Positions 3,394-12,093 of a stretch of 32,000 bases of DNA are shown here, piece after piece (within the stretch, counting starts at the first letter, position 1; the number at the start of each line of letters is the position of its first letter). The stretch is taken from the NCBI GenBank assembly GCA_000620205.1, contig JHVP01000011.1:128569-160568 (forward strand), written 5' to 3'. This DNA comes from Geodermatophilaceae bacterium URHA0031. Its GTDB lineage: Bacteria; Actinomycetota; Actinomycetes; Mycobacteriales; Geodermatophilaceae. The notes beneath the pieces are model-generated. The model ran no database searches, was not told the origin of the DNA, and saw only the letters and a list, made by a program, of their open reading frames with translations. The position numbers and the translations under genes are program-made.

Positions 3394-5178
3394 TCAGCGG
3401 CCGCTGCGGCTGGGACGTCGTCCCTGACGGGAGCCGGACCGTGAACCCGGCCGGGGACGACGGGAGTCGCGGCCGCCGCCGTCGCGCCCGCCGCGGCCCG
3501 CGGGACCGCGGGTGCTGCACGGCCGGCAGGTGCTGAACCACGGGGCGATCGCGGTGCCGCACTCGCTGCACTTCCCCGAGCGACCCAGCGAGATCGCGCC
3601 GGGCAGCATCTCGGTGATCGTCTCGGAGCACTCCTCCTCGACCCACGCCGCGTCGTCGCTGCTCAACCCGCCGACCCCGGGGAACTGGCGGAGCAGGGTC
3701 TGCGCGTCGCGCGCCGCGGCCGCGGTCTGCTCGAACTCCTCGACGCTGCCGCCGACCGGGAGGTCGGGGAGGATCAGCTCCGGCGGTACCGGCAGCCCGA
3801 CGGCGTGCTGCAGCGCTGCCCTGGCCAGCACCAGCCAGCGGGTGCGCCGCGGCGGGTTGTAGTCGATCGCCAGGTTGACCAGCCGCCAGACGGTGTCCAG
3901 GTCACCGGCCGCACCGAGCGGGCCGCGCAGGAGCGGCAGCAGGGCGTGCACGCGCAGCACCAGGCCGGTCACGTCGTCGGCGGTCATCGCCTGGTCGCGG
4001 GTGGCGGCCCGGGCCCACGCCATCCACCGGGTCAGCGCCTCGGGCAGGTCCACGGCCTCGTGGGCGCCGAGGTCCTCGAGCTCCGGCCGCAGCCGCGGCG
4101 CGCGCTTGGGCAGGTCGCTCATCTCGTCGCCGCGGGCCACGGCGGCTCCGGCGCCGACCAGCGCGGCGACCGGCTTGAGGCCGCTCACGCCGATCAGGAT
4201 GCCGACCTGGCCGTGCCCGGTCAGCCCGTACCGGCCGGCGCGCCCGGCGATCTGGGCGGCCTCCCAGGTGCGCAGCGGCCGCAGCTCCTGCCCGTCGAAC
4301 TTCGTCGTCTCGGCGAAGAGGACCGTGGTGGCCGGCACGTTGATGCCGTGGCCGATCACGTCGGTGGTGACGAGCACGTCGAGCTCGCCGGTGGTGAACC
4401 GCTCGATGACCTCGCGACGGGTGGCCGGGGGGAGCGCGCCGTAGAGGACGCCGACCTTCCCGGGCCGGTGCTGGTCGAGCTCGGCCGCGACCGCGTAGAC
4501 GGTCTTGCGGGAGAAGGCGACGACGAGCGTCTGCGGGCGGACGCCGGTGGTGCGCACCGGCGCCTTGAGGACGTCGAGCCGGGACAGCCGCTTGTGGTTG
4601 ACGACCTCGACGTGCTCCGCGTCGGCGACCAGCGGCTTGAGCACGAGGTAGGCCTCGGCGGCGGAGATCAGGTGCATCTCGCGGTACTCACCGGTCAGCA
4701 GCAGGCGGGCCCAGTGGTGGCCGCGGTCCGCGTCGGTGACCCAGTGCGCCTCGTCGAGCACCAGCATCTCGCCGCGGTCCGGGGCCTTCTCGACGGTGCA
4801 GCAGACGATCGGCGCGAAGGGGTTGATCTCCTCCTCACCGGTGGACAGGCCGACGGTGCCCTCGGGCAGCTGGGCTGACAGCTTGGCGTAGGCCTCGTGA
4901 GCGAGCTGGCGCAGCGGCGCCGCGTAGACGCCGGAGCCGGTCGCGGCCAGCGCCTGCAGCGACTCGTAGGTCTTGCCGGAGTTGGTGGGGCCGAGGTGGA
5001 AGACGACGTTCTCGGGTCGGGTCCCGCGCGTCGGGAGCTCGGGGGCGGCGCCGTCGACCCAGATCTGCTGGGCGCGCTTCTCGTCGCGGGCGGCGGTCCG
5101 GTCGGCTTCGCGGGTGGCGGCCTCGCGAGTGGCGCTGCGCTCGCGGCGCCGGGAGGGGGTCTGCTGCGGGACGGTCAC
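3394..5178 (-). CDS. Suv3/SUPV3L1-like superfamily-2 ATP-dependent (RNA) helicase with C-terminal zinc ribbon and Arg/Gly/Ser-rich tail
   Basis: ORF 3394..5292. I prefer the GTG at 5178 (VTVPQQ), which has GAAGGA 10 nt upstream. Motifs: Walker A GPTNSGKT, motif II LDEAHW, VTTDVIGHGINV, QIAGRAGR. The C-terminus has CSEC-x10-CRPC followed by RGGRDGGGRDSRRPRPGSRSGSRQGRR. Confidence 0.85.
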   Translation of the reverse strand: MTVPQQTPSRRRERSATREAATREADRTAARDEKRAQQIWVDGAAPELPTRGTRPENVVFHLGPTNSGKTYESLQALAATGSGVYAAPLRQLAHEAYAKLSAQLPEGTVGLSTGEEEINPFAPIVCCTVEKAPDRGEMLVLDEAHWVTDADRGHHWARLLLTGEYREMHLISAAEAYLVLKPLVADAEHVEVVNHKRLSRLDVLKAPVRTTGVRPQTLVVAFSRKTVYAVAAELDQHRPGKVGVLYGALPPATRREVIERFTTGELDVLVTTDVIGHGINVPATTVLFAETTKFDGQELRPLRTWEAAQIAGRAGRYGLTGHGQVGILIGVSGLKPVAALVGAGAAVARGDEMSDLPKRAPRLRPELEDLGAHEAVDLPEALTRWMAWARAATRDQAMTADDVTGLVLRVHALLPLLRGPLGAAGDLDTVWRLVNLAIDYNPPRRTRWLVLARAALQHAVGLPVPPELILPDLPVGGSVEEFEQTAAAARDAQTLLRQFPGVGGLSSDDAAWVEEECSETITEMLPGAISLGRSGKCSECGTAIAPWFSTCRPCSTRGPAGRGGRDGGGRDSRRPRPGSRSGSRQGRRPSRSGR

Positions 5179-5367
5179 AGAGCGGGAGTGTCCTTCGGTG
5201 AGGGGAGGCGGTGGGAGGTCGACGCGCGCGTGCGCGGACCTGCACGGAAGTGGAACACCGCCGTCCCGCACATCATGCCCGACCTGGTCCATCGGCCGTC
5301 TCTCAGCAGGTTCCAGGCCGGGGTCGGGAGATGGGCCCGCGCCGGGGCGATAGCCTCGTCATCGTCA

Positions 5368-5454
5368 GGAGGGCTCGCCTAGTGGCCGATGGCGGCGGTC
5401 TTGAAAACCGCTATGGGGTCAAACCCATCGTGGGTTCGAATCCCACGCCCTCCG
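5368..5454 (+). tRNA. tRNA-Ser (anticodon UGA), long variable arm, no encoded CCA
   Basis: Folded by hand. Acceptor GGAGGGC/GCCCTCC plus discriminator G. Anticodon arm GCGGT-CTTGAAA-ACCGC. Variable arm ATGGG..CCCAT. T arm GTGGG-TTCGAAT-CCCAC. Confidence 0.93.
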
Positions 5455-5456
5455 CT
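5428..5456 (+). repeat. attL-type direct repeat (T-arm to 3' end of tRNA-Ser)
   Basis: tcgtgggttcgaatcccacgccctccgct is identical to 8867..8895. Confidence 0.9.
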
Positions 5457-6335
5457 CCGATCAGCGGTCTGGTCTTCGTTCGACCGGGCGTTGGGCTCCC
5501 CGAGGGGGCTCAGCGCCCCCGTCGTGCCAGCCGCGTGTCCGTACGGTTCTTGAGTACCTGCGGTTGGCACATACCAGGTCCGAGTCCGACAAGGCCTCGG
5601 GCCCCTCGTGGCGGTGAGGCGGCATCTGCGGACGTCCTGATTCCTCGATTTTCGGTCATCCTCATGCTTGAGCTCTTCGACCGGTCGCGCTCGCCATCGC
5701 GTCTGGGATATGAGTGCAACGGCCGCGGGTCGTCGTGGACCGCTGCACGTCGTCTCGCTGGTTGGTAGCTCGACACTTCGATGCGCCCCGCCGACTGCCA
5801 TCAGTCGCCCCCAGGATGGTCATTTCATCAGCTGGCGTTCAGTCCGCAGGGGTCCGCAGGCCTTGATCAGCGCCACTTGGCCTTGCCCGAGCGCGGCACC
5901 TTGATCGTGGACACCCCGCAGCGGAGGGCGCCGCAGGTCCTGGGACTGCCCTACTGCTTGGCTGCGGGTTCGTCGCTTGGCGGGGCGTGGGCAAGTCTGC
6001 CTCTCAGGGCATGCGTCCTGAATGCGCCGCCCGCTACGGGACAGACTGCCGGGACGCTCGCTTGGTCCCGCCTTCGTCCAAGAGGGCTTTGGGGACAACG
6101 CGCCAGTCCCGAACGCGCCTGGCTCAAACAGAGAAAGCAGCCTTGCTGTCTTCTACGGCACCGGACGCGCCAGTCGGGCGATCCCGGGACGCGAAGTCTT
6201 CACTGCCGTATCCGTTCATGACCACGAGACCCCGGCCGAGCCGGTGACGTACCGGTGACGGAGGGGTCGTAGCGTTGACCGCTGATGATGTCCGCGCTGG
6301 CGGCAGGGTCGAGCCCAGTAGGGTCAGGGGGAGTC

Positions 6336-6686
6336 ATGGCTGATCCCGAACTCGAGTATCTGGTCACCCTGGACGAAGAATCGTTGCTCATGGAAATAGC
6401 CATGGCGGATGATCCGCACCTTGCACTCCACGCGCCAGACGATTTGATCGATTATGGCCGCGCCGCGGTCGCGCGTGTACTGCCACAGGCTCGAGCCCTG
6501 ATCTGCCCACATCATTCATCGATCAAGGGACTCCTTTCTTCACCCGAGTTCGAGGTGATCACCACCGTCGCCGCTTATCTCGTGGCTGGCCTCGCGGGTG
6601 CGCTCGTGAAGCCACTAGCCACCTATCTCGTCAAGCGTGGCATCGAGCCCCTGTGTGCAAACTGGAAATCAAATGCTTCCGGCTAG
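6336..6686 (+). CDS. hypothetical protein, 116 aa, acidic N-terminal half plus hydrophobic (possible TM) segment
   Basis: In ORF 6285..6686. The ATG at 6336 is preceded by AGGGGGAG. Sequence: MADPELEYLVTLDEESLLMEIAMADDPHLALHAPDDLIDY...VITTVAAYLVAGLAGALV. Codon usage is atypical for the host. I recognise no family. Confidence 0.6.
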   Translation: MADPELEYLVTLDEESLLMEIAMADDPHLALHAPDDLIDYGRAAVARVLPQARALICPHHSSIKGLLSSPEFEVITTVAAYLVAGLAGALVKPLATYLVKRGIEPLCANWKSNASG

Positions 6687-8166
6687 CTCTGCGGTTGGCG
6701 GCCAGGCGCAGTTTGACGAGGCGGTCGGTGCCGTGCACCTGCCGTTCCCTGTCGCGCACATGGACTTCCTTCGACCCACTCTAGATACATGGCAAGATCA
6801 TCTCAAGGCCTTTCATGAATGGGTGCACTTTTACCAGTTCGCCAGCACCAGCTATGGAATAATGTATCGCGCAGCGACAATGGCCCAGGTCCTTGCAGTC
6901 GCCCGGCTTCTGCGATTTTACGAGCCCGCAGGAGGTAGGTGTCGGCTTCCACTCACAAGTAACAACATCCCCTCGTTGATCACACTGGGCCAAGGCCCTG
7001 AGTCAGTCCAGGCTCAATGGCAAACGGAACTTCGCCTCGTGCAATTGCTTGAGGAATATCGCACAACAATCTATGGGTACAGGGTCGCCAAGCCTCAGGC
7101 TGCCGCCGCAACAGAACCAGAACGGCGATTGTTCCTGATGGTGCTGCAGGAGGAAGTGGGGTTGCCGCCACTACTGTTCGTCTGGCCTCACGAGTGGCTG
7201 CCGGACGAAGCCGCGGCCATCAATCTCATTGACACCAAGGTCATGCTCGAGTCGCATGCACATGCGTTGGCTGGCCTCTGGATGATTCAAGCCGTCGAAC
7301 GCTTTCATCTCCCCGATGAGCTCAGAGAGAAGGCGCTTGCATACACCGATCGCCTTGCTAAAGGCCCGTATGGACGTTTCCTTGGGGTTAAAGCCGAGCC
7401 CGAGTACTTGCTCCATACAATATGCACATTGTGCGACCTCGCCCTGAACCCCCCCGGCTTCACCAAGTGGCCGCCGCAAACCACGACAGTGATGTTTGAT
7501 ACAACGTGGGCTCCGGTGTCACGCCTCCTTCATCTACTAGCTCTTCACAGCGAGGGCCGGTTGCCCCATCTCAGCATGTCCCGTGCGGGCTGGCAGCTGC
7601 AGTTCCTTCAAGAACTGCATGGAACCCTGGACTCCGGGTGGGACCAGTACTTTCCGCCGTATGACCGAGTTCCATGGAATGGGGCGCAGGGTTTGGTCTC
7701 GGACATCGTTGGCAAGGTCCTCGGATCCATTGATAAATCTTTTCTTCCACCGGTCGCGGCATTGTATCTGGAGGACTGGTTTCAGTCGTACGCCGCGGTC
7801 GATCTCATGCGTTCCTCCATTCCCGAACCTCTGCTGCTTGCCGGTAACTCCATAGAGGACCTTGAGCGATTGGTTGCGACAGCAGGTGCTCCGACTGTTC
7901 TGGTGCGCCAAGGCCAATCGGATCACGTTTTCCCCCGCTGGTGTACCGGTTTAGCGCATGCGGGATACCTGAAAGCGCAGGATCCTACATGGAATGACAC
8001 AGTCGTCGGTGCCGGCCTCGGCTGGATGATGGCTCTTCGATGCCTTCTCAATGAGACGAAACGAGAGCTCGTGCCCACGTTGCATGCCCCCCTCCATGCT
8101 GGCGTCGACCTCACGCTCGCCGACGTCCTGGGGTGGTATGGCCGCCGGCTAGATGACTTCGACTGA
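6673..8166 (+). CDS. hypothetical protein, ~497 aa, Trp-rich, N-proximal HExxH (HEWVH) motif; possible zincin-like enzyme
   Basis: ORF 6637..8166. An ORF of ~500 codons in ~50% GC DNA is unlikely by chance. The ATG at 6673 overlaps the upstream stop by 14 nt; an alternative GTG is at 6637. The motif reads KAFHEWVHFYQF. I recognise no family. Confidence 0.75.
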   Translation: MLPASSAVGGQAQFDEAVGAVHLPFPVAHMDFLRPTLDTWQDHLKAFHEWVHFYQFASTSYGIMYRAATMAQVLAVARLLRFYEPAGGRCRLPLTSNNIPSLITLGQGPESVQAQWQTELRLVQLLEEYRTTIYGYRVAKPQAAAATEPERRLFLMVLQEEVGLPPLLFVWPHEWLPDEAAAINLIDTKVMLESHAHALAGLWMIQAVERFHLPDELREKALAYTDRLAKGPYGRFLGVKAEPEYLLHTICTLCDLALNPPGFTKWPPQTTTVMFDTTWAPVSRLLHLLALHSEGRLPHLSMSRAGWQLQFLQELHGTLDSGWDQYFPPYDRVPWNGAQGLVSDIVGKVLGSIDKSFLPPVAALYLEDWFQSYAAVDLMRSSIPEPLLLAGNSIEDLERLVATAGAPTVLVRQGQSDHVFPRWCTGLAHAGYLKAQDPTWNDTVVGAGLGWMMALRCLLNETKRELVPTLHAPLHAGVDLTLADVLGWYGRRLDDFD

Positions 8167-8339
8167 AGAGAAAAGGGTCCCGACACCTGCAAGTGCTGGC
8201 CACGTAGAAGCTCGACAGCTATCCGTCGACTGAGGGGTCTGCGGTCTGAGTCCTGTGCTCAGGTTCGGTCGCCTTTCGGACCTGCCAGACCCGCGGCGAT
8301 GCCGTCACCCAAGCGCTGCGGCTCCTGGTCCGCCTCCGC

Positions 8340-8570
8340 GAACGATCAGGAAACGTTCAAGCCCTTCCGATCTGCAGCCGCTCCTCCAGCGACAGATACC
8401 GCGCCGACACCGCCCGCGGTGCCGCCGGCGGTCGACCGCCCCGAGGCACGTCGCCACCGATATCCCGGCCGCCGACACACGCCGACAGCCTCAAGCCTGC
8501 GAGAAGGCAGAACCCGACGTCACCAGCTCCCAGAACCGTTGCTGCCTCTCATCCCGAACCCGCCGCCACT
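8340..8570 (-). pseudogene. IS30-family-like transposase remnant (N-terminal HTH region only; frameshifts and stops)
   Basis: Reverse-strand translation across three frames gives WRRVRDERQQRFWELVTSGSAFSQA* / LEAVGVCRRPGYRWRRASG / GGRPPAAPRAVSARYLSLEERLQIGRA*. From memory this matches the ..RFWxLVxxGxSxxxAAxxVGVSxxTGxRWxRxxGG..GRYLSLxEREEI.. N-terminus of actinobacterial IS30-type transposases. No DDE domain follows. Confidence 0.45.
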
Positions 8571-8823
8571 TGGAAACCACCACAACACCTCGCGCTCACA
8601 GGGTATTGCGACGAGCGCCTGAATGCGCCGCCGCCCTCAGGGACACCCGACTTGGTAACCGTGCCAGCACCACATCGGCGGCCATCGCTGTCGACTGCCA
8701 GCTGCTTCGGCCGTGCCCGCTACGTGCCCGTACGACGGGCGCAAAGAGGGCAATCGGACCCATCAGCGGTGAGCCAACTGGGTTGCTGAGCAGCGGATAC
8801 GCAAGAATGGGCAGCTCTGAGAA

Positions 8824-8895
8824 CGTGGCCGAGAGAACTTGGGAACCGCTAAGAGGTAACTCCTCTTCGTGGGTTCGAATCCCACGCCCTCCGCT
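8824..8895 (+). pseudogene. partial/degenerate tRNA-Ser copy (attR); includes exact 29-nt repeat 8867..8895
   Basis: The sequence gtggccga...cttgggaACCGCTaAGAGGtaacTCCTCTtcGTGGGTTCGAATCCCACGCCCTCCG aligns to the D-loop, the 3' anticodon-stem strand, a different but self-complementary variable arm, the T arm and the 3' acceptor strand of the 5368..5454 tRNA. The 5' acceptor strand is missing and the anticodon stem cannot pair. Confidence 0.7.
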
Positions 8896-9363
8896 GGGCT
8901 GTGCTCTCGCGCGTGGGCTGGACAGTGCTGACGTCGCTCAGACGTTCGCGCGGCGAAGCCGCAGCCGTGGCAGCGGTCCGAAGCCCCATTTCCCCGCGCG
9001 GCTCCGCCGTCGATCACGGAGAGCGACGCCCGCCCGAGGTGTGCTGTGCGGTCTGGCCTGGGACGTGCAGCGTCGCGAGGTGCGTACTTCCGCCAGGTGA
9101 AGTCAGTCCTCGCCCGCGGCAGGGGGATGGCCCCCGGTCCGGTTGCCCGCTTGGTCCGCCCCTCGTTCCGCGGAGTCGGTTCCGACGTGACGTGATCGCC
9201 GCGGCCCGCAAGGGTGAGGCGTCGGACTCCCAGGTGCCCCGTGACTTGCGCCGGCGCAGCAAGCTGGCGGTCGGCGGCACCGTGTTGCCGGCCGGCCACC
9301 GTGGCATCCACGCCGAAGTGATCAACTGAGCGCCGGTCTTCCACGATCTCGCCCTTGGATCAC

Positions 9364-9404
9364 GGTCATCGTGGGCGGCCCGGGTCGGACCGCCCACGAT
9401 GACC
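9364..9404 (-). terminator. hairpin terminator of BNR lipoprotein gene
   Basis: Perfect 15-bp inverted repeat ggtcatcgtgggcgg / ccgcccacgatgacc with an 11-nt loop. It begins 8 nt downstream of the stop at 9412..9414 (minus strand). Confidence 0.6.
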
Positions 9405-9411
9405 TCGTCGA

Positions 9412-11694
9412 TCAGGAACCCTGCAGCAGTTCGGTCGGATTGCGGAGCACCCAGATCTCCGGCGCGGAGCCCGAGTTCGCCGCCAGCAGCAGCGAGTCCC
9501 CGTCCGCCGCGACGTCGACACCGGCAAGCGGACGGTTCGCCGGCACTGGAATGGCGCGCCAGTCCTCGCCGTCCTGCGACATCCACACGACGGCACCACG
9601 CTGTCCGTCGGACCCGAGCGTGCCGGCCGCGGCGAAACCGCCGTCGACCACGCGGATCGGGCCGAAGCTGTCGCCACGTTCACCGAGCTCCGTCGCTTCG
9701 AAGGTGACGCCGTCCGTCGTCCGCCACACCGTCTCGCGGCCCCCGCGGAGTCCCTGCAGCAGCGTCGTGCCGTCCGTGGTCGTGCAGGAACTGAGTGACC
9801 CGAACGTGCCGCCGAGCGCTGCCGTGTCGATCTGCTGCCACTGATCGCCGGTCCGCCGCCAAGCGAGCGGACGCTCCTGCGCCTGCTCAACGGCCTCCCC
9901 GACGACCAGCAGGTCCCCCTCGGGCAGCGCGCAGGCCCCGCTCGCCGTGAACTCGCCACCGGGCATGGTGGAGGCGAACGGGCCGACCTCGCGCGCCCAC
10001 GTGACCCCGTCGGCCGACGTCCAGACAGCTGCCTCGTTGAGCGCGCCGGCGTAGAACGACTCTCGGCTGATGCCCACGGCCACCCACATCCCGCCGCTGT
10101 ACGTGACACTGGTCAGCCTCTCCGACCGGGGTGTGTCGAAGCCAGCCACCGGTGTCCACCCGCCTCCCGCTGGACGAAACCAACCGGTCAGGTTCTGCCT
10201 CGAGGTGCCATCGTCCTCGGTCAGGACCTGGGTGCCGAGCAGTGCCGATGCGCCTTGCGGGTCGCCAGCCAGTTCCATCCCCGCGAGACGGTCGCTCCCG
10301 GCCGGGTCCCAGGGCCGATCGGTCACGACGCCACCGCTCACCGTGTAGGCGGCGATGTCCCAGTTCGGCATCCAGTCGCCTGTCGCGGTCGTGGAGACCG
10401 TCCATCGCGAGCCCACCACCACCGGCGAGCTGTCGCTCTGGAACTGCCCGAGGCTGCGTCCGGCATCGTTGGTCCCGAGCATGACCGGGTCGTTGGCCCA
10501 GTGGCCGCGTGCGTCCATGACTCCTACGCGGCCGACGTTCCGCGCGGACTGCGCGATCACCGCAGAGCCGTCATCTGACATGCCAGCGACGGCATTGGCG
10601 CCCGGAAGCTCCCAGTCGGTCGCCGATCCCAGCACCGACCACGTGCCGGTGACGTCGCGCTGCAGCGCGGCGAAGCGCAGCTCATTGTCGACCTGGATGG
10701 TCGCAACCAGCCGGTCGCCGCCCACCGTCGGCGCAGCGAGCCACGCACTGGCACCCTCGTGCCGTGCGAAGCCGTCCCGGTCTTCGTCCAGCGCGGGCAG
10801 TTGCTCGGCGGTCCACTCGATGCCGTCGGCCGACGACCAGGCCGCCGCGGTGGCGAGGCTGTCGGCACCCCAGAGATGGCCGGTCACCACGAACCGTTCC
10901 CCCTGCACGGCGACGCCAGACGGGACCGACGGTCCCGAACCGGGCCCCACCGCCACGCTCCACGTGCTGCCGCCGTCGGTCGAGCGGTACACGACGCTCT
11001 CGTCGGTCCGACCCGGTGCCGCCGCCTGGGCGACGGCGATCACCGTGTCCCCGTGAACCGCCACGCCGTTGAACCCGCGGAACTCACGGGCCTCCGGCGC
11101 ACCGGGCAGGACCATCAGATCGCTGTCCTCACCAGCCCGCACGGCCACTGGCCGGTCATCGCGGTCCTGACCGACGATGAGCACCCCGTCGCCGAGCGGA
11201 ACGGCAGCCCCGGGTTCCACGGCCGCGTCGATGGCCTCGTCCGGGAGCTCGACCACGTCCCAGGCGGAGCGGTCGCTGGACTCGACGAGGAAGGGCACGA
11301 TCGACTCACCGGCCCGCCACGTCGTGCCGGCCACCCAGGTCATCGCACCATCCGTGGTCGCGACGGCGGCTTCGCCGTAGGCATCGGCGGGCAGGGGCAG
11401 GTCCTTCCACCGCCACTCGTCGCCGAGGTCGGTCCAGACGCGGGCGCGGTCGGGCTCTCCCGGGTCAGCGCCCGAGACCGCCAACAACGGCGGCAGATCT
11501 CCGTGCGCGCCGAGAACAGCCCGGACGTCGATCCTCGGTCCGTTCATCTCCGCAGTCACGGGCAGAGCGCTCTGCGACCATTCCGCCCGCTCGTCGAGCG
11601 TCGATGACGCCTCACTCGGACCACAGGCGGTAAGGGTCAGGGTCAGCAGGCCCGCGCCCGCGACGAACGCCCGGTGGCGGGCGGACCAGAACAT
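9412..11694 (-). CDS. BNR/Asp-box repeat (sialidase-fold, beta-propeller-like) lipoprotein
   Basis: ORF 9412..11754. The ATG at 11694 has GAGGAG 9 nt upstream. Signal peptide with lipobox: MFWSARHRAFVAGAGLLTLTLTAC. Asp-box motifs: YRSTDGGSTWS, WSSADGIEW, WTSADGVTW, WRTTDGVTF, WMSQDGEDW. Confidence 0.8.
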   Translation of the reverse strand: MFWSARHRAFVAGAGLLTLTLTACGPSEASSTLDERAEWSQSALPVTAEMNGPRIDVRAVLGAHGDLPPLLAVSGADPGEPDRARVWTDLGDEWRWKDLPLPADAYGEAAVATTDGAMTWVAGTTWRAGESIVPFLVESSDRSAWDVVELPDEAIDAAVEPGAAVPLGDGVLIVGQDRDDRPVAVRAGEDSDLMVLPGAPEAREFRGFNGVAVHGDTVIAVAQAAAPGRTDESVVYRSTDGGSTWSVAVGPGSGPSVPSGVAVQGERFVVTGHLWGADSLATAAAWSSADGIEWTAEQLPALDEDRDGFARHEGASAWLAAPTVGGDRLVATIQVDNELRFAALQRDVTGTWSVLGSATDWELPGANAVAGMSDDGSAVIAQSARNVGRVGVMDARGHWANDPVMLGTNDAGRSLGQFQSDSSPVVVGSRWTVSTTATGDWMPNWDIAAYTVSGGVVTDRPWDPAGSDRLAGMELAGDPQGASALLGTQVLTEDDGTSRQNLTGWFRPAGGGWTPVAGFDTPRSERLTSVTYSGGMWVAVGISRESFYAGALNEAAVWTSADGVTWAREVGPFASTMPGGEFTASGACALPEGDLLVVGEAVEQAQERPLAWRRTGDQWQQIDTAALGGTFGSLSSCTTTDGTTLLQGLRGGRETVWRTTDGVTFEATELGERGDSFGPIRVVDGGFAAAGTLGSDGQRGAVVWMSQDGEDWRAIPVPANRPLAGVDVAADGDSLLLAANSGSAPEIWVLRNPTELLQGS

Positions 11695-12093
11695 CAAGAG
11701 TGAACTCCTCGTTCGAAGCGGCCGTTGCCGTTTCGCCCAGCGTGCATCGGACACTCCGCAGGCAAGGCACAGTGATCGGCGGTCTCACTCGAACGAGGCC
11801 GGCCTGACCTTCCATCGGTCGACCACGGCGCGCGTCCATCCACGCGCCCGCAGACAAGACGAACCGAGGTGTCCCCACCGAGACCCGACGGGGCTCCGAC
11901 CAGCCAGCCCGGCGGCAGAATCGCACGCGCCTCGCGCGCGGTGGACGGATCTGGCATGCCGGCGACCGATGACTCCTGCCCGTCGTCGCAGTCGATCCTG
12001 TGTGCGCGAGGACGCAGCGGATTTCGAGGGACCGGACCCAGGGCACGTCGGTGATGACAGGCGGCCCGCCGGTCACGGCGGAGGGGTGCCGGC

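Follow-up and report, generated by a model that had tools for sequence, protein, structure and literature searches.

A co-inherited, mobile gene pair encoding an HExxH protein and a small partner, carried by a tRNA-Ser islet in Modestobacter

The two genes of the cassette and their pairing

The window, that is, the whole stretch of 32,000 nucleotides (nt) analysed here (contig JHVP01000011.1 of Geodermatophilaceae bacterium URHA0031, positions 128,569 to 160,568), is a segment of a Modestobacter (Geodermatophilaceae) chromosome. It holds a cassette of two genes on the plus strand, which encode a small protein of 116 amino acids (aa) and a large protein of 497 aa and lie in a 3.4-kb islet at a tRNA-Ser gene (Table 1). 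A GGGGGAG ribosome-binding site is located 5 nt upstream of the start codon of the small gene, and its product matches exactly an annotated NCBI hypothetical protein (P0044). The large open reading frame (ORF), read from the ATG at 6673, corresponds to the NCBI protein P0001. This start agrees with the N-termini of the homologues and makes the large gene overlap the small one by 14 nt; an alternative GTG start at 6637 would yield a protein of 509 aa. Both ORFs align end to end with their homologues, with no frameshifts.

Table 1 Features of the cassette and of the islet that carries it (positions in the window)
Feature	Position	Strand	Basis or remark
tRNA-Ser, anticodon TGA, integration target	5368..5455	+	ARAGORN; Rfam tRNA, 53 bits
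attL core, 29-nt 3' end of tRNA-Ser, left direct-repeat copy	5428..5456		repeat search, 100% identity
Left islet arm, no recognisable gene	5457..6335		ORFs without Pfam match; GC 0.64-0.67
Small partner gene, 116 aa	6336..6686	+	ATG at 6336, stop TAG at 6686; intact ORF
Codon of invariant Cys57, small protein	6504..6506	+	
Codon of invariant Cys107, small protein	6654..6656	+	
Large gene, 497 aa	6673..8166	+	ATG start; intact ORF
HEWVHFYQF, residues 48-56, conserved HExxHxxQ(F), putative metal site and general base	6814..6840	+	alignment; HEWVH itself at 6814..6828
LESHA, residues 192-196, second conserved motif, with E193 and H195 as candidates for further metal binding	7246..7260	+	
DLALNPP, residues 255-261, third conserved motif, nearly invariant Asp255	7435..7455	+	
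Right islet arm, no recognisable gene	8167..8837		ORFs without Pfam match; no homology to other cassette loci
attR, 58-nt partial tRNA-Ser copy, anticodon loop to 3' end	8838..8895	+	right copy of the 29-nt repeat at 8867..8895 (its last 29 nt)

The family of the large protein is very rare. It forms six clusters among 5.8 billion proteins, and a profile search recovered it as 39 of 1.84 billion representatives. Searching the 5.8-billion-protein database again with a profile of 22 sequences added one protein only, and a scan of metagenome contigs yielded a single new informative locus (L091). No relatives were found in the GTDB representative genomes. P0001 is a one-member cluster on a single contig, the window strain being its only carrier, and related Modestobacter species lack the cassette.

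The pair was found in about a dozen unrelated contigs of soil bacteria. We considered as informative those loci that have a full-length large homologue with readable upstream DNA, which are 12 in number (the window, L001/L002, L003-L005, L006, L007, L091, L099, the P0045 contig, L100, L101, L102, and L103-L105). A homologous gene of 107-117 aa lies directly upstream of the full-length large gene, on the same strand, in all 12 of these independent loci, so that the coupling of a small gene to a large one, which an earlier note on this DNA had read from the window only, recurs in other genomes. The pairing persists at loci whose large proteins are no more than about 20% identical; the most distant large homologue, P0033, is matched by the profile with an E-value of only 2.5e-6. 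The junction between the genes ranges from the 14-nt overlap to a 68-nt gap and includes 4-nt overlaps of the TTGA type, and the pairwise identities of the small proteins correlate with those of the large ones (r=0.87, Mantel p about 1e-4, nine pairs). Such junctions and such co-divergence are signs of a unit inherited as one. Different loci resemble each other only as far as the ends of the gene pair, none of the 12 shares a conserved third gene with the others, and the pair moves as a unit between unrelated genomic contexts. The pair is thus a co-inherited, translationally coupled and horizontally mobile two-gene unit. A fusion of the two ORFs by programmed frameshifting was considered and rejected because the junction varies.

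The two genes differ in how they occur alone. A solo small gene (P0054 cluster), with no large gene, is present on at least nine soil contigs. The sole large gene found to lack a small partner (L008-L010) is 5'-truncated; it begins at residue 160 and has lost the HExxH motif. The island around this truncated gene (L008, 9821-10852) also carries AbiEi/AbiEii, a ResIII helicase and part of a phage integrase. Transposases occur at L006, L007, L091 and L094.

Several further features of these neighbourhoods were recorded. The P0054 gene (L093-L098, e.g., L093 1816-2238), whose product of 140 aa by the gene call is extended at its N-terminus by hydrophobic residues, is followed by a 64-aa ORF and an NTP_transf_2 (MNT-like) gene; the transposase of L094 is of the DDE type. 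The contig of the most distant pair (L103 1-17521, P0033) carries an RHS/TcdB-like toxin and a helix-turn-helix (HTH) protein with an M78 protease, the latter matching the PADLOC model capP (E 2e-16). Its other neighbours include Peptidase_C1 with Inhibitor_I42, MazG_C, HMUDK_hel, a nucleoside 2-deoxyribosyltransferase and SRAP. At two loci a metallopeptidase gene stands directly downstream of the pair (Peptidase_MA_2 in L100, 4551-5513, and Peptidase_M10 in L003, 11504-13075), which is probably a coincidence.

Conserved residues, predicted folds and searches for relatives

Conservation in the large protein was counted over 22 full-length or nearly full-length homologues, 21 of which have the N-terminus; overall identity among the 22 is 16-35%. 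The HExxH motif is intact in 19 of the 21, at identities down to 16-20%, and is therefore not a chance string. Its residues H48 (20/21), E49 (21/21) and H52 (20/21) are accompanied by Q55 (21/21), T59 (21/22), G62 (22/22) and P93 (21/22). Further along the protein, conservation is concentrated at E193 (20/22) and H195 (18/22) of the LESHA motif, at D255 (21/22, the remaining homologue having Glu), A257 (20/22) and L258 (21/22) of the third motif, and at R284 (20/22), R380 (22/22) and P386 (21/22). A C-terminal D-F-D is retained in the closer relatives. Read from these alignments, the large-protein family is under clear purifying selection, with its motifs kept at about 20% identity, and it carries a conserved signature resembling a metal site, made up of HExxHxxQ, L-E-x-H-A, one Asp and two Arg.

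The large protein contains 16 Trp residues, and hydropathy analysis detected neither a transmembrane segment nor a signal peptide in it. Its AlphaFold2 model, built from six sequences, is all-alpha with few short strands (predicted local distance difference test score (pLDDT) 72.5, predicted template-modelling score (pTM) 0.78). In the model the HExxH motif lies in a predicted helix (40-58) and LESHA in another (188-210). The first conserved acidic residue after HExxH is E193, 141 residues past H52 and not on the next helix (60-82), in which no conserved Glu, Asp or His is found.

The small protein is acidic (15 Asp plus Glu versus 8 Lys plus Arg). Leu17, Cys57, Gly102 and Cys107 are invariant among its homologues, and the short tail of 2-12 residues that follows Cys107 is highly variable. 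AlphaFold2 models the protein as a compact seven-helix bundle (pLDDT 92, pTM 0.84). An intermolecular site of four cysteines, formed by C57 and C107 of the small protein with C251 and C254 of the large one, was rejected, as P0019 and P0033 lack the cysteines of the large protein and yet have partners that keep both of theirs.

The earlier note, which had been made from the letters of the sequence, described the large protein as Trp-rich, mostly helical and free of transmembrane segments and both proteins as falling outside any family known to its author. These descriptions agree with our results, and the sequence strings that it quoted are correct. Its caution that an HExxH string may occur by chance is answered by the conservation of HEWVH. 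The WPHEW string, to which it also drew attention, is not conserved among the homologues. The note further raised the possibility of a membrane anchor in the hydrophobic stretch of the small protein. In all nine small proteins the 19-residue hydropathy peaks at 1.3-2.3 within the C-terminal third; in six of them the peak exceeds 1.6, the rough transmembrane cut-off used here. Several homologues have Pro, Asp, Glu, Gln or His within the stretch, which is modelled as two short helices (71-82 and 88-101) inside the bundle, and the anchor is therefore left with no positive support.

Neither window protein has a significant match in Pfam, NCBIfam, PHROGs or PADLOC; the strongest one returned was phrog_26900, a family of unknown function (E 0.034). 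The same scans of 22 large and nine small homologues returned scattered matches at chance level only; against PADLOC-DB 2.0.0, the large homologues gave a single one, to Cas3b (E 0.09). The window large protein has no NCBIfam match at E-values up to 1, the model of the alpha-ketoglutarate (aKG)-dependent HExxH hydroxylases included, and no member of that family was matched among the 22 large homologues. Sequence-profile searches of the PDB found nothing, the best match being a truncated haemoglobin (E 0.04) over a region free of the motifs. Foldseek detected no match with E < 0.1 for the large model in the PDB or BFVD, nor for the small model in the PDB. No homology of the large protein to a housekeeping enzyme was found, and a literature search retrieved no description of the pair. 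Both proteins thus represent new families without assignable relatives, and the links to known biology are confined to the HExxH signature, the two-gene layout of a conflict module and the tRNA islet as a vehicle. Ribonucleotide reductase beta subunits recur among the non-significant Foldseek matches of the large protein in both the PDB and BFVD (E about 1-4, template-modelling (TM) scores 0.1-0.2), which is possibly only an effect of size among all-alpha proteins.

The tRNA-Ser islet

The islet is flanked by a Suv3-like helicase gene (3394-5292, minus strand) whose product is 96% and 94% identical to its counterparts in M. altitudinis and M. excelsi. It is bounded by an exact 29-nt direct repeat, one copy being the 3' end of the tRNA-Ser gene and the other the end of the partial tRNA-Ser copy at the far junction (Table 1). 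The variable arm of the resident tRNA-Ser agrees with that of the closest relative, M. excelsi, whereas that of the partial copy is unlike the resident one and resembles that of Modestobacter sp. VKM Ac-2984 (L038). In VKM Ac-2984 the tRNA-Ser gene is followed at once by DNA with 82% identity to the stretch just beyond the islet (8896-9076), and this genome therefore represents the empty site.

The G+C content (GC) is 0.57-0.58 over 6500-8000, versus 0.70-0.79 in most of the window, and the GC at third codon positions (GC3) is 0.63 in both cassette genes, versus 0.79-0.96 in five host genes. None of the ORFs in the islet arms has a Pfam match, integrases included, and Rfam, promoter and terminator scans of the islet detected nothing beyond the tRNA and its partial copy. 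The view of the earlier note that two intact, overlapping genes in foreign DNA of lower GC are the only intact cargo of a tRNA-Ser islet is upheld by these observations. The unameliorated GC3 and the exact repeats indicate recent arrival rather than long decay, and we conclude that the cassette arrived recently in the window strain on an islet flanked by att sites.

Islets integrated at tRNA genes and cis-mobilisable remnants of such elements likewise have a foreign composition, are bounded by direct repeats taken from the tRNA 3' end, with part of a tRNA at the far junction, and have an empty counterpart site in a relative. The window islet differs from them in having no detectable integrase or integrase remnant and, with its 3.4 kb only, it cannot move by itself. 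Its left arm is not shared with the other cassette-carrying loci. The first ~94 nt of this arm (5457-5549) resemble, by blastn and alignment, the DNA that follows the tRNA-Ser gene in M. excelsi (L012 9510-9600) and in Modestobacter sp. VKM Ac-2985 (L040 9608-9700). This resemblance suggests that related elements or their remnants may occupy the same tRNA-Ser site in other species. The insert of ~6.9 kb at the tRNA-Ser gene of M. excelsi gave no integrase match, and no other genes were recognised in it.

Beyond the islet lie ~6 kb of further variable DNA (8896-~15100), so that insertions seem to have struck the tRNA-Ser locus repeatedly, as at a hotspot. In both M. italicus (L017) and an uncultured Modestobacter (L015), the homologue of the window from ~15150 onward is located within ~150-200 nt of the tRNA-Ser gene. 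The additional DNA encodes, on the minus strand, a 780-aa protein (9412-11754) with a lipoprotein-like N-terminus (LTLTACG) and no Pfam match. Directly past the stop codon of this ORF is a 19-nt inverted repeat (9364-9404, 95% complementary, 3-nt loop) that is likely a terminator hairpin. ARAGORN also called a 98-nt tRNA-Ala(GGC) at 4144-4241 on the minus strand, inside the helicase ORF; its size is atypical and it falls within coding sequence, both of which suggest a spurious call.

Possible roles of the pair

We tentatively favour, while regarding it as open to considerable doubt, a reading of the cassette as a mobile conflict module in which the small partner restrains a metal-dependent effector enzyme. 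In this enzyme, the large protein, the metal would be held by H48 and H52, together with E193 and/or H195, with E49 acting as the general base; most simply, it would be a zincin-style hydrolase whose target is a protein or peptide. The small helical protein would be made first, in amounts that match those of the enzyme, and would bind it and keep it inactive; either of the invariant cysteines may extend to the metal in the manner of a cysteine switch. The pair would then act as a module of the toxin-antitoxin or abortive-infection type, its enzyme being released when the small protein is lost or titrated.

A restraining role for the small protein is favoured by the gene order and coupling, by the observation that every intact large gene with readable upstream DNA has a small gene beside it, and by the persistence of solo small genes while the sole solo large gene has lost its catalytic N-terminus. 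The neighbourhoods also favour it, being rich in mobile or conflict-type genes: transposases, an integrase, AbiE, an RHS toxin, a CapP-like protease accompanied by an HTH protein, and MazG_C and HMUDK_hel. The conflict-module reading further draws on the catalytic-looking conservation of the large protein and on the tRNA islet and recent acquisition of the window copy. Taken together, we infer that the large protein is a metalloenzyme effector with the small one as its obligate partner; an anti-phage, abortive-infection or toxin-immunity function is a putative one, read from the layout, mobility and decay patterns of the pair.

Known systems resemble this arrangement in part. As in the zincin/gluzincin metallopeptidases, the large protein has a conserved HExxH on a predicted helix and a conserved Glu on a later helix, and it is mostly helical and about 500 aa long, the size of all-alpha peptidase families such as M3 and M32. 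It differs from them in matching no Pfam or NCBIfam peptidase model and no solved zincin in Foldseek, and in having its HExxH at residue 48, preceded only by a short beta-hairpin. Lit (peptidase U49), encoded on the e14 element of E. coli, is an HExxH protease of ~300 aa that causes abortive infection as a dormant suicide effector. If the large protein serves in defence, the two have in common an HExxH protein on an integrated mobile element, but Lit is a single gene of ~300 aa without a small partner, and no Pfam or PADLOC sequence match links them. Type II toxin-antitoxin systems also encode a small acidic protein first, coupled to a larger effector gene, in modules that are mobile, patchy and fast-decaying, as is the pair, whose orphan small genes persist while a partnerless large gene is seen only truncated. 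The putative effector of about 500 aa is, however, far larger than usual toxins, and neither cassette protein belongs to a known toxin-antitoxin family.

Several observations weigh against a restrained zincin-style toxin. In gluzincins the Glu that serves as third ligand follows HExxH by about 18-75 residues, on the following helix, and the spacing of E193 is far outside that range. No zincin fold is present among the Foldseek PDB matches of the large protein, and two homologues depart from the motif, one with Glu in place of H48 and one with Tyr in place of H52. Classical type II antitoxins usually carry a DNA-binding domain of the HTH, ribbon-helix-helix (RHH), AbrB or a similar type; the nine small proteins have no significant Pfam match and no domain of these types, and conservation is roughly equal in the small and the large protein. 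As to a role in defence, neither window protein has a match in PADLOC-DB 2.0.0, no other defence genes were found inside the window islet, and no homologues were detected in plasmid and phage collections (tblastn) or in viral-contig collections. The neighbourhood evidence is anecdotal and does not amount to statistical enrichment. Finally, hydrolysis cannot be assumed from an HExxH motif, because HExxH proteins annotated as peptidases include Fe/aKG-dependent peptide hydroxylases with a zincin-like fold (PMC12636437).

This precedent raises the possibility, which we consider rather doubtful but only slightly less likely than the conflict module, that the pair consists of a non-toxic accessory enzyme and an obligate structural or regulatory subunit. 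The enzyme could be, for example, a mono- or dinuclear Fe/Mn oxygenase that uses HExxH with E193, H195 and D255 and acts on a small molecule or a host peptide; its two invariant Arg would bind an anionic co-substrate such as aKG, and the cassette would have spread through a metabolic benefit in its niche. A conserved set made up of three His, a pair of Arg and two or three carboxylates would suit the site of an oxygenase as well as that of a hydrolase, and the change of H48 to Glu in one homologue is compatible with the former, as are the ferritin-like ribonucleotide reductase beta subunits among the weak Foldseek matches and the even conservation of a small protein that has no antitoxin-like DNA-binding domain. 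Those matches are nevertheless non-significant, with TM-scores of 0.1-0.2, neither the aKG-HExxH model nor any oxygenase family is matched, and no conserved biosynthetic or transport genes surround the pair. Its extreme rarity, its patchiness and its decay into solo small and truncated large genes fit a conflict module better. The aKG HExxH peptide hydroxylases themselves (IPR026337 / TIGR04267; ChlH, BpmH, PflC/PosC) share with the large protein an HExxH motif in a non-canonical, largely helical enzyme and a location beside a small gene, whose product is in their case acted on by the hydroxylase. The partner here is by contrast a folded protein of 116 aa rather than a leader-core peptide, and no radical SAM, MNIO, transporter or other genes for peptides that are ribosomally synthesised and then post-translationally modified (RiPPs) occur near the cassette.

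The same comparison bears on whether the small protein is the substrate of the HExxH enzyme, which would convert it into a bacteriocin-like or signalling product, for instance by trimming the variable tail after Cys107 or through a change to one of its cysteines. The product of an adjacent small gene is indeed what HExxH enzymes act on in RiPP systems (PMC12636437), and the strict one-to-one co-occurrence and coupling of the genes, as well as two invariant cysteines followed by a short variable tail, would be in keeping with such a role. We nonetheless think it unlikely, since the small protein is confidently modelled as a globular bundle, unlike disordered leader-core precursors, is conserved over its whole length rather than in a leader, and has no exporter, immunity or further tailoring genes conserved nearby; solo small genes would also make little sense for a precursor. 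Less likely again is a model built on the membrane anchor of the earlier note, in which a tail-anchored small protein would hold a cytoplasmic protease at the membrane or activate it there. The hydropathy maxima and a non-significant Foldseek resemblance of the small protein to bundles of the Bcl-2/Mcl-1 type (E above 1) speak for it; the polar, charged and Pro residues that break the stretch in several homologues, the packing of its two short helices into the compact bundle, and the conserved charged K-R-G and Cys-containing segment that follows it make this model very improbable. We give least credence to the idea that the pair is functionless in the window genome, as leftover cargo of a decayed integrative element that has stayed intact by chance. 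The islet has indeed lost any integrase, its arms hold no recognisable genes, and the cassette is confined to the window strain among its relatives, but the integrity of both ORFs, the purifying selection on the family and the signs of recent arrival given above all run counter to it.

Should the conflict-module reading be correct, the pair would enlarge the known range of bacterial conflict systems by an effector with a new chemistry and an inhibitor with a new fold, in a compact two-gene unit of 1.8 kb that is easy to test. It is possible, if on present evidence doubtful, that the pair founds an undescribed conflict system in which a metalloenzyme effector of a fold absent from the PDB is silenced at its metal site by a new helical-bundle inhibitor, perhaps via an invariant cysteine. 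The ecological weight of such a system is limited by its extreme rarity (about 39 of 1.84 billion representatives). The pair nevertheless spans lineages, with neighbourhoods that range from actinobacterial to apparently Gram-negative ones encoding lipopolysaccharide (LPS) and TonB functions. Under any reading, both proteins are confidently modelled and have no significant Foldseek match in the PDB, which makes the pair a clean target for structure work and for the role of HExxH outside the known peptidase and aKG-hydroxylase families.

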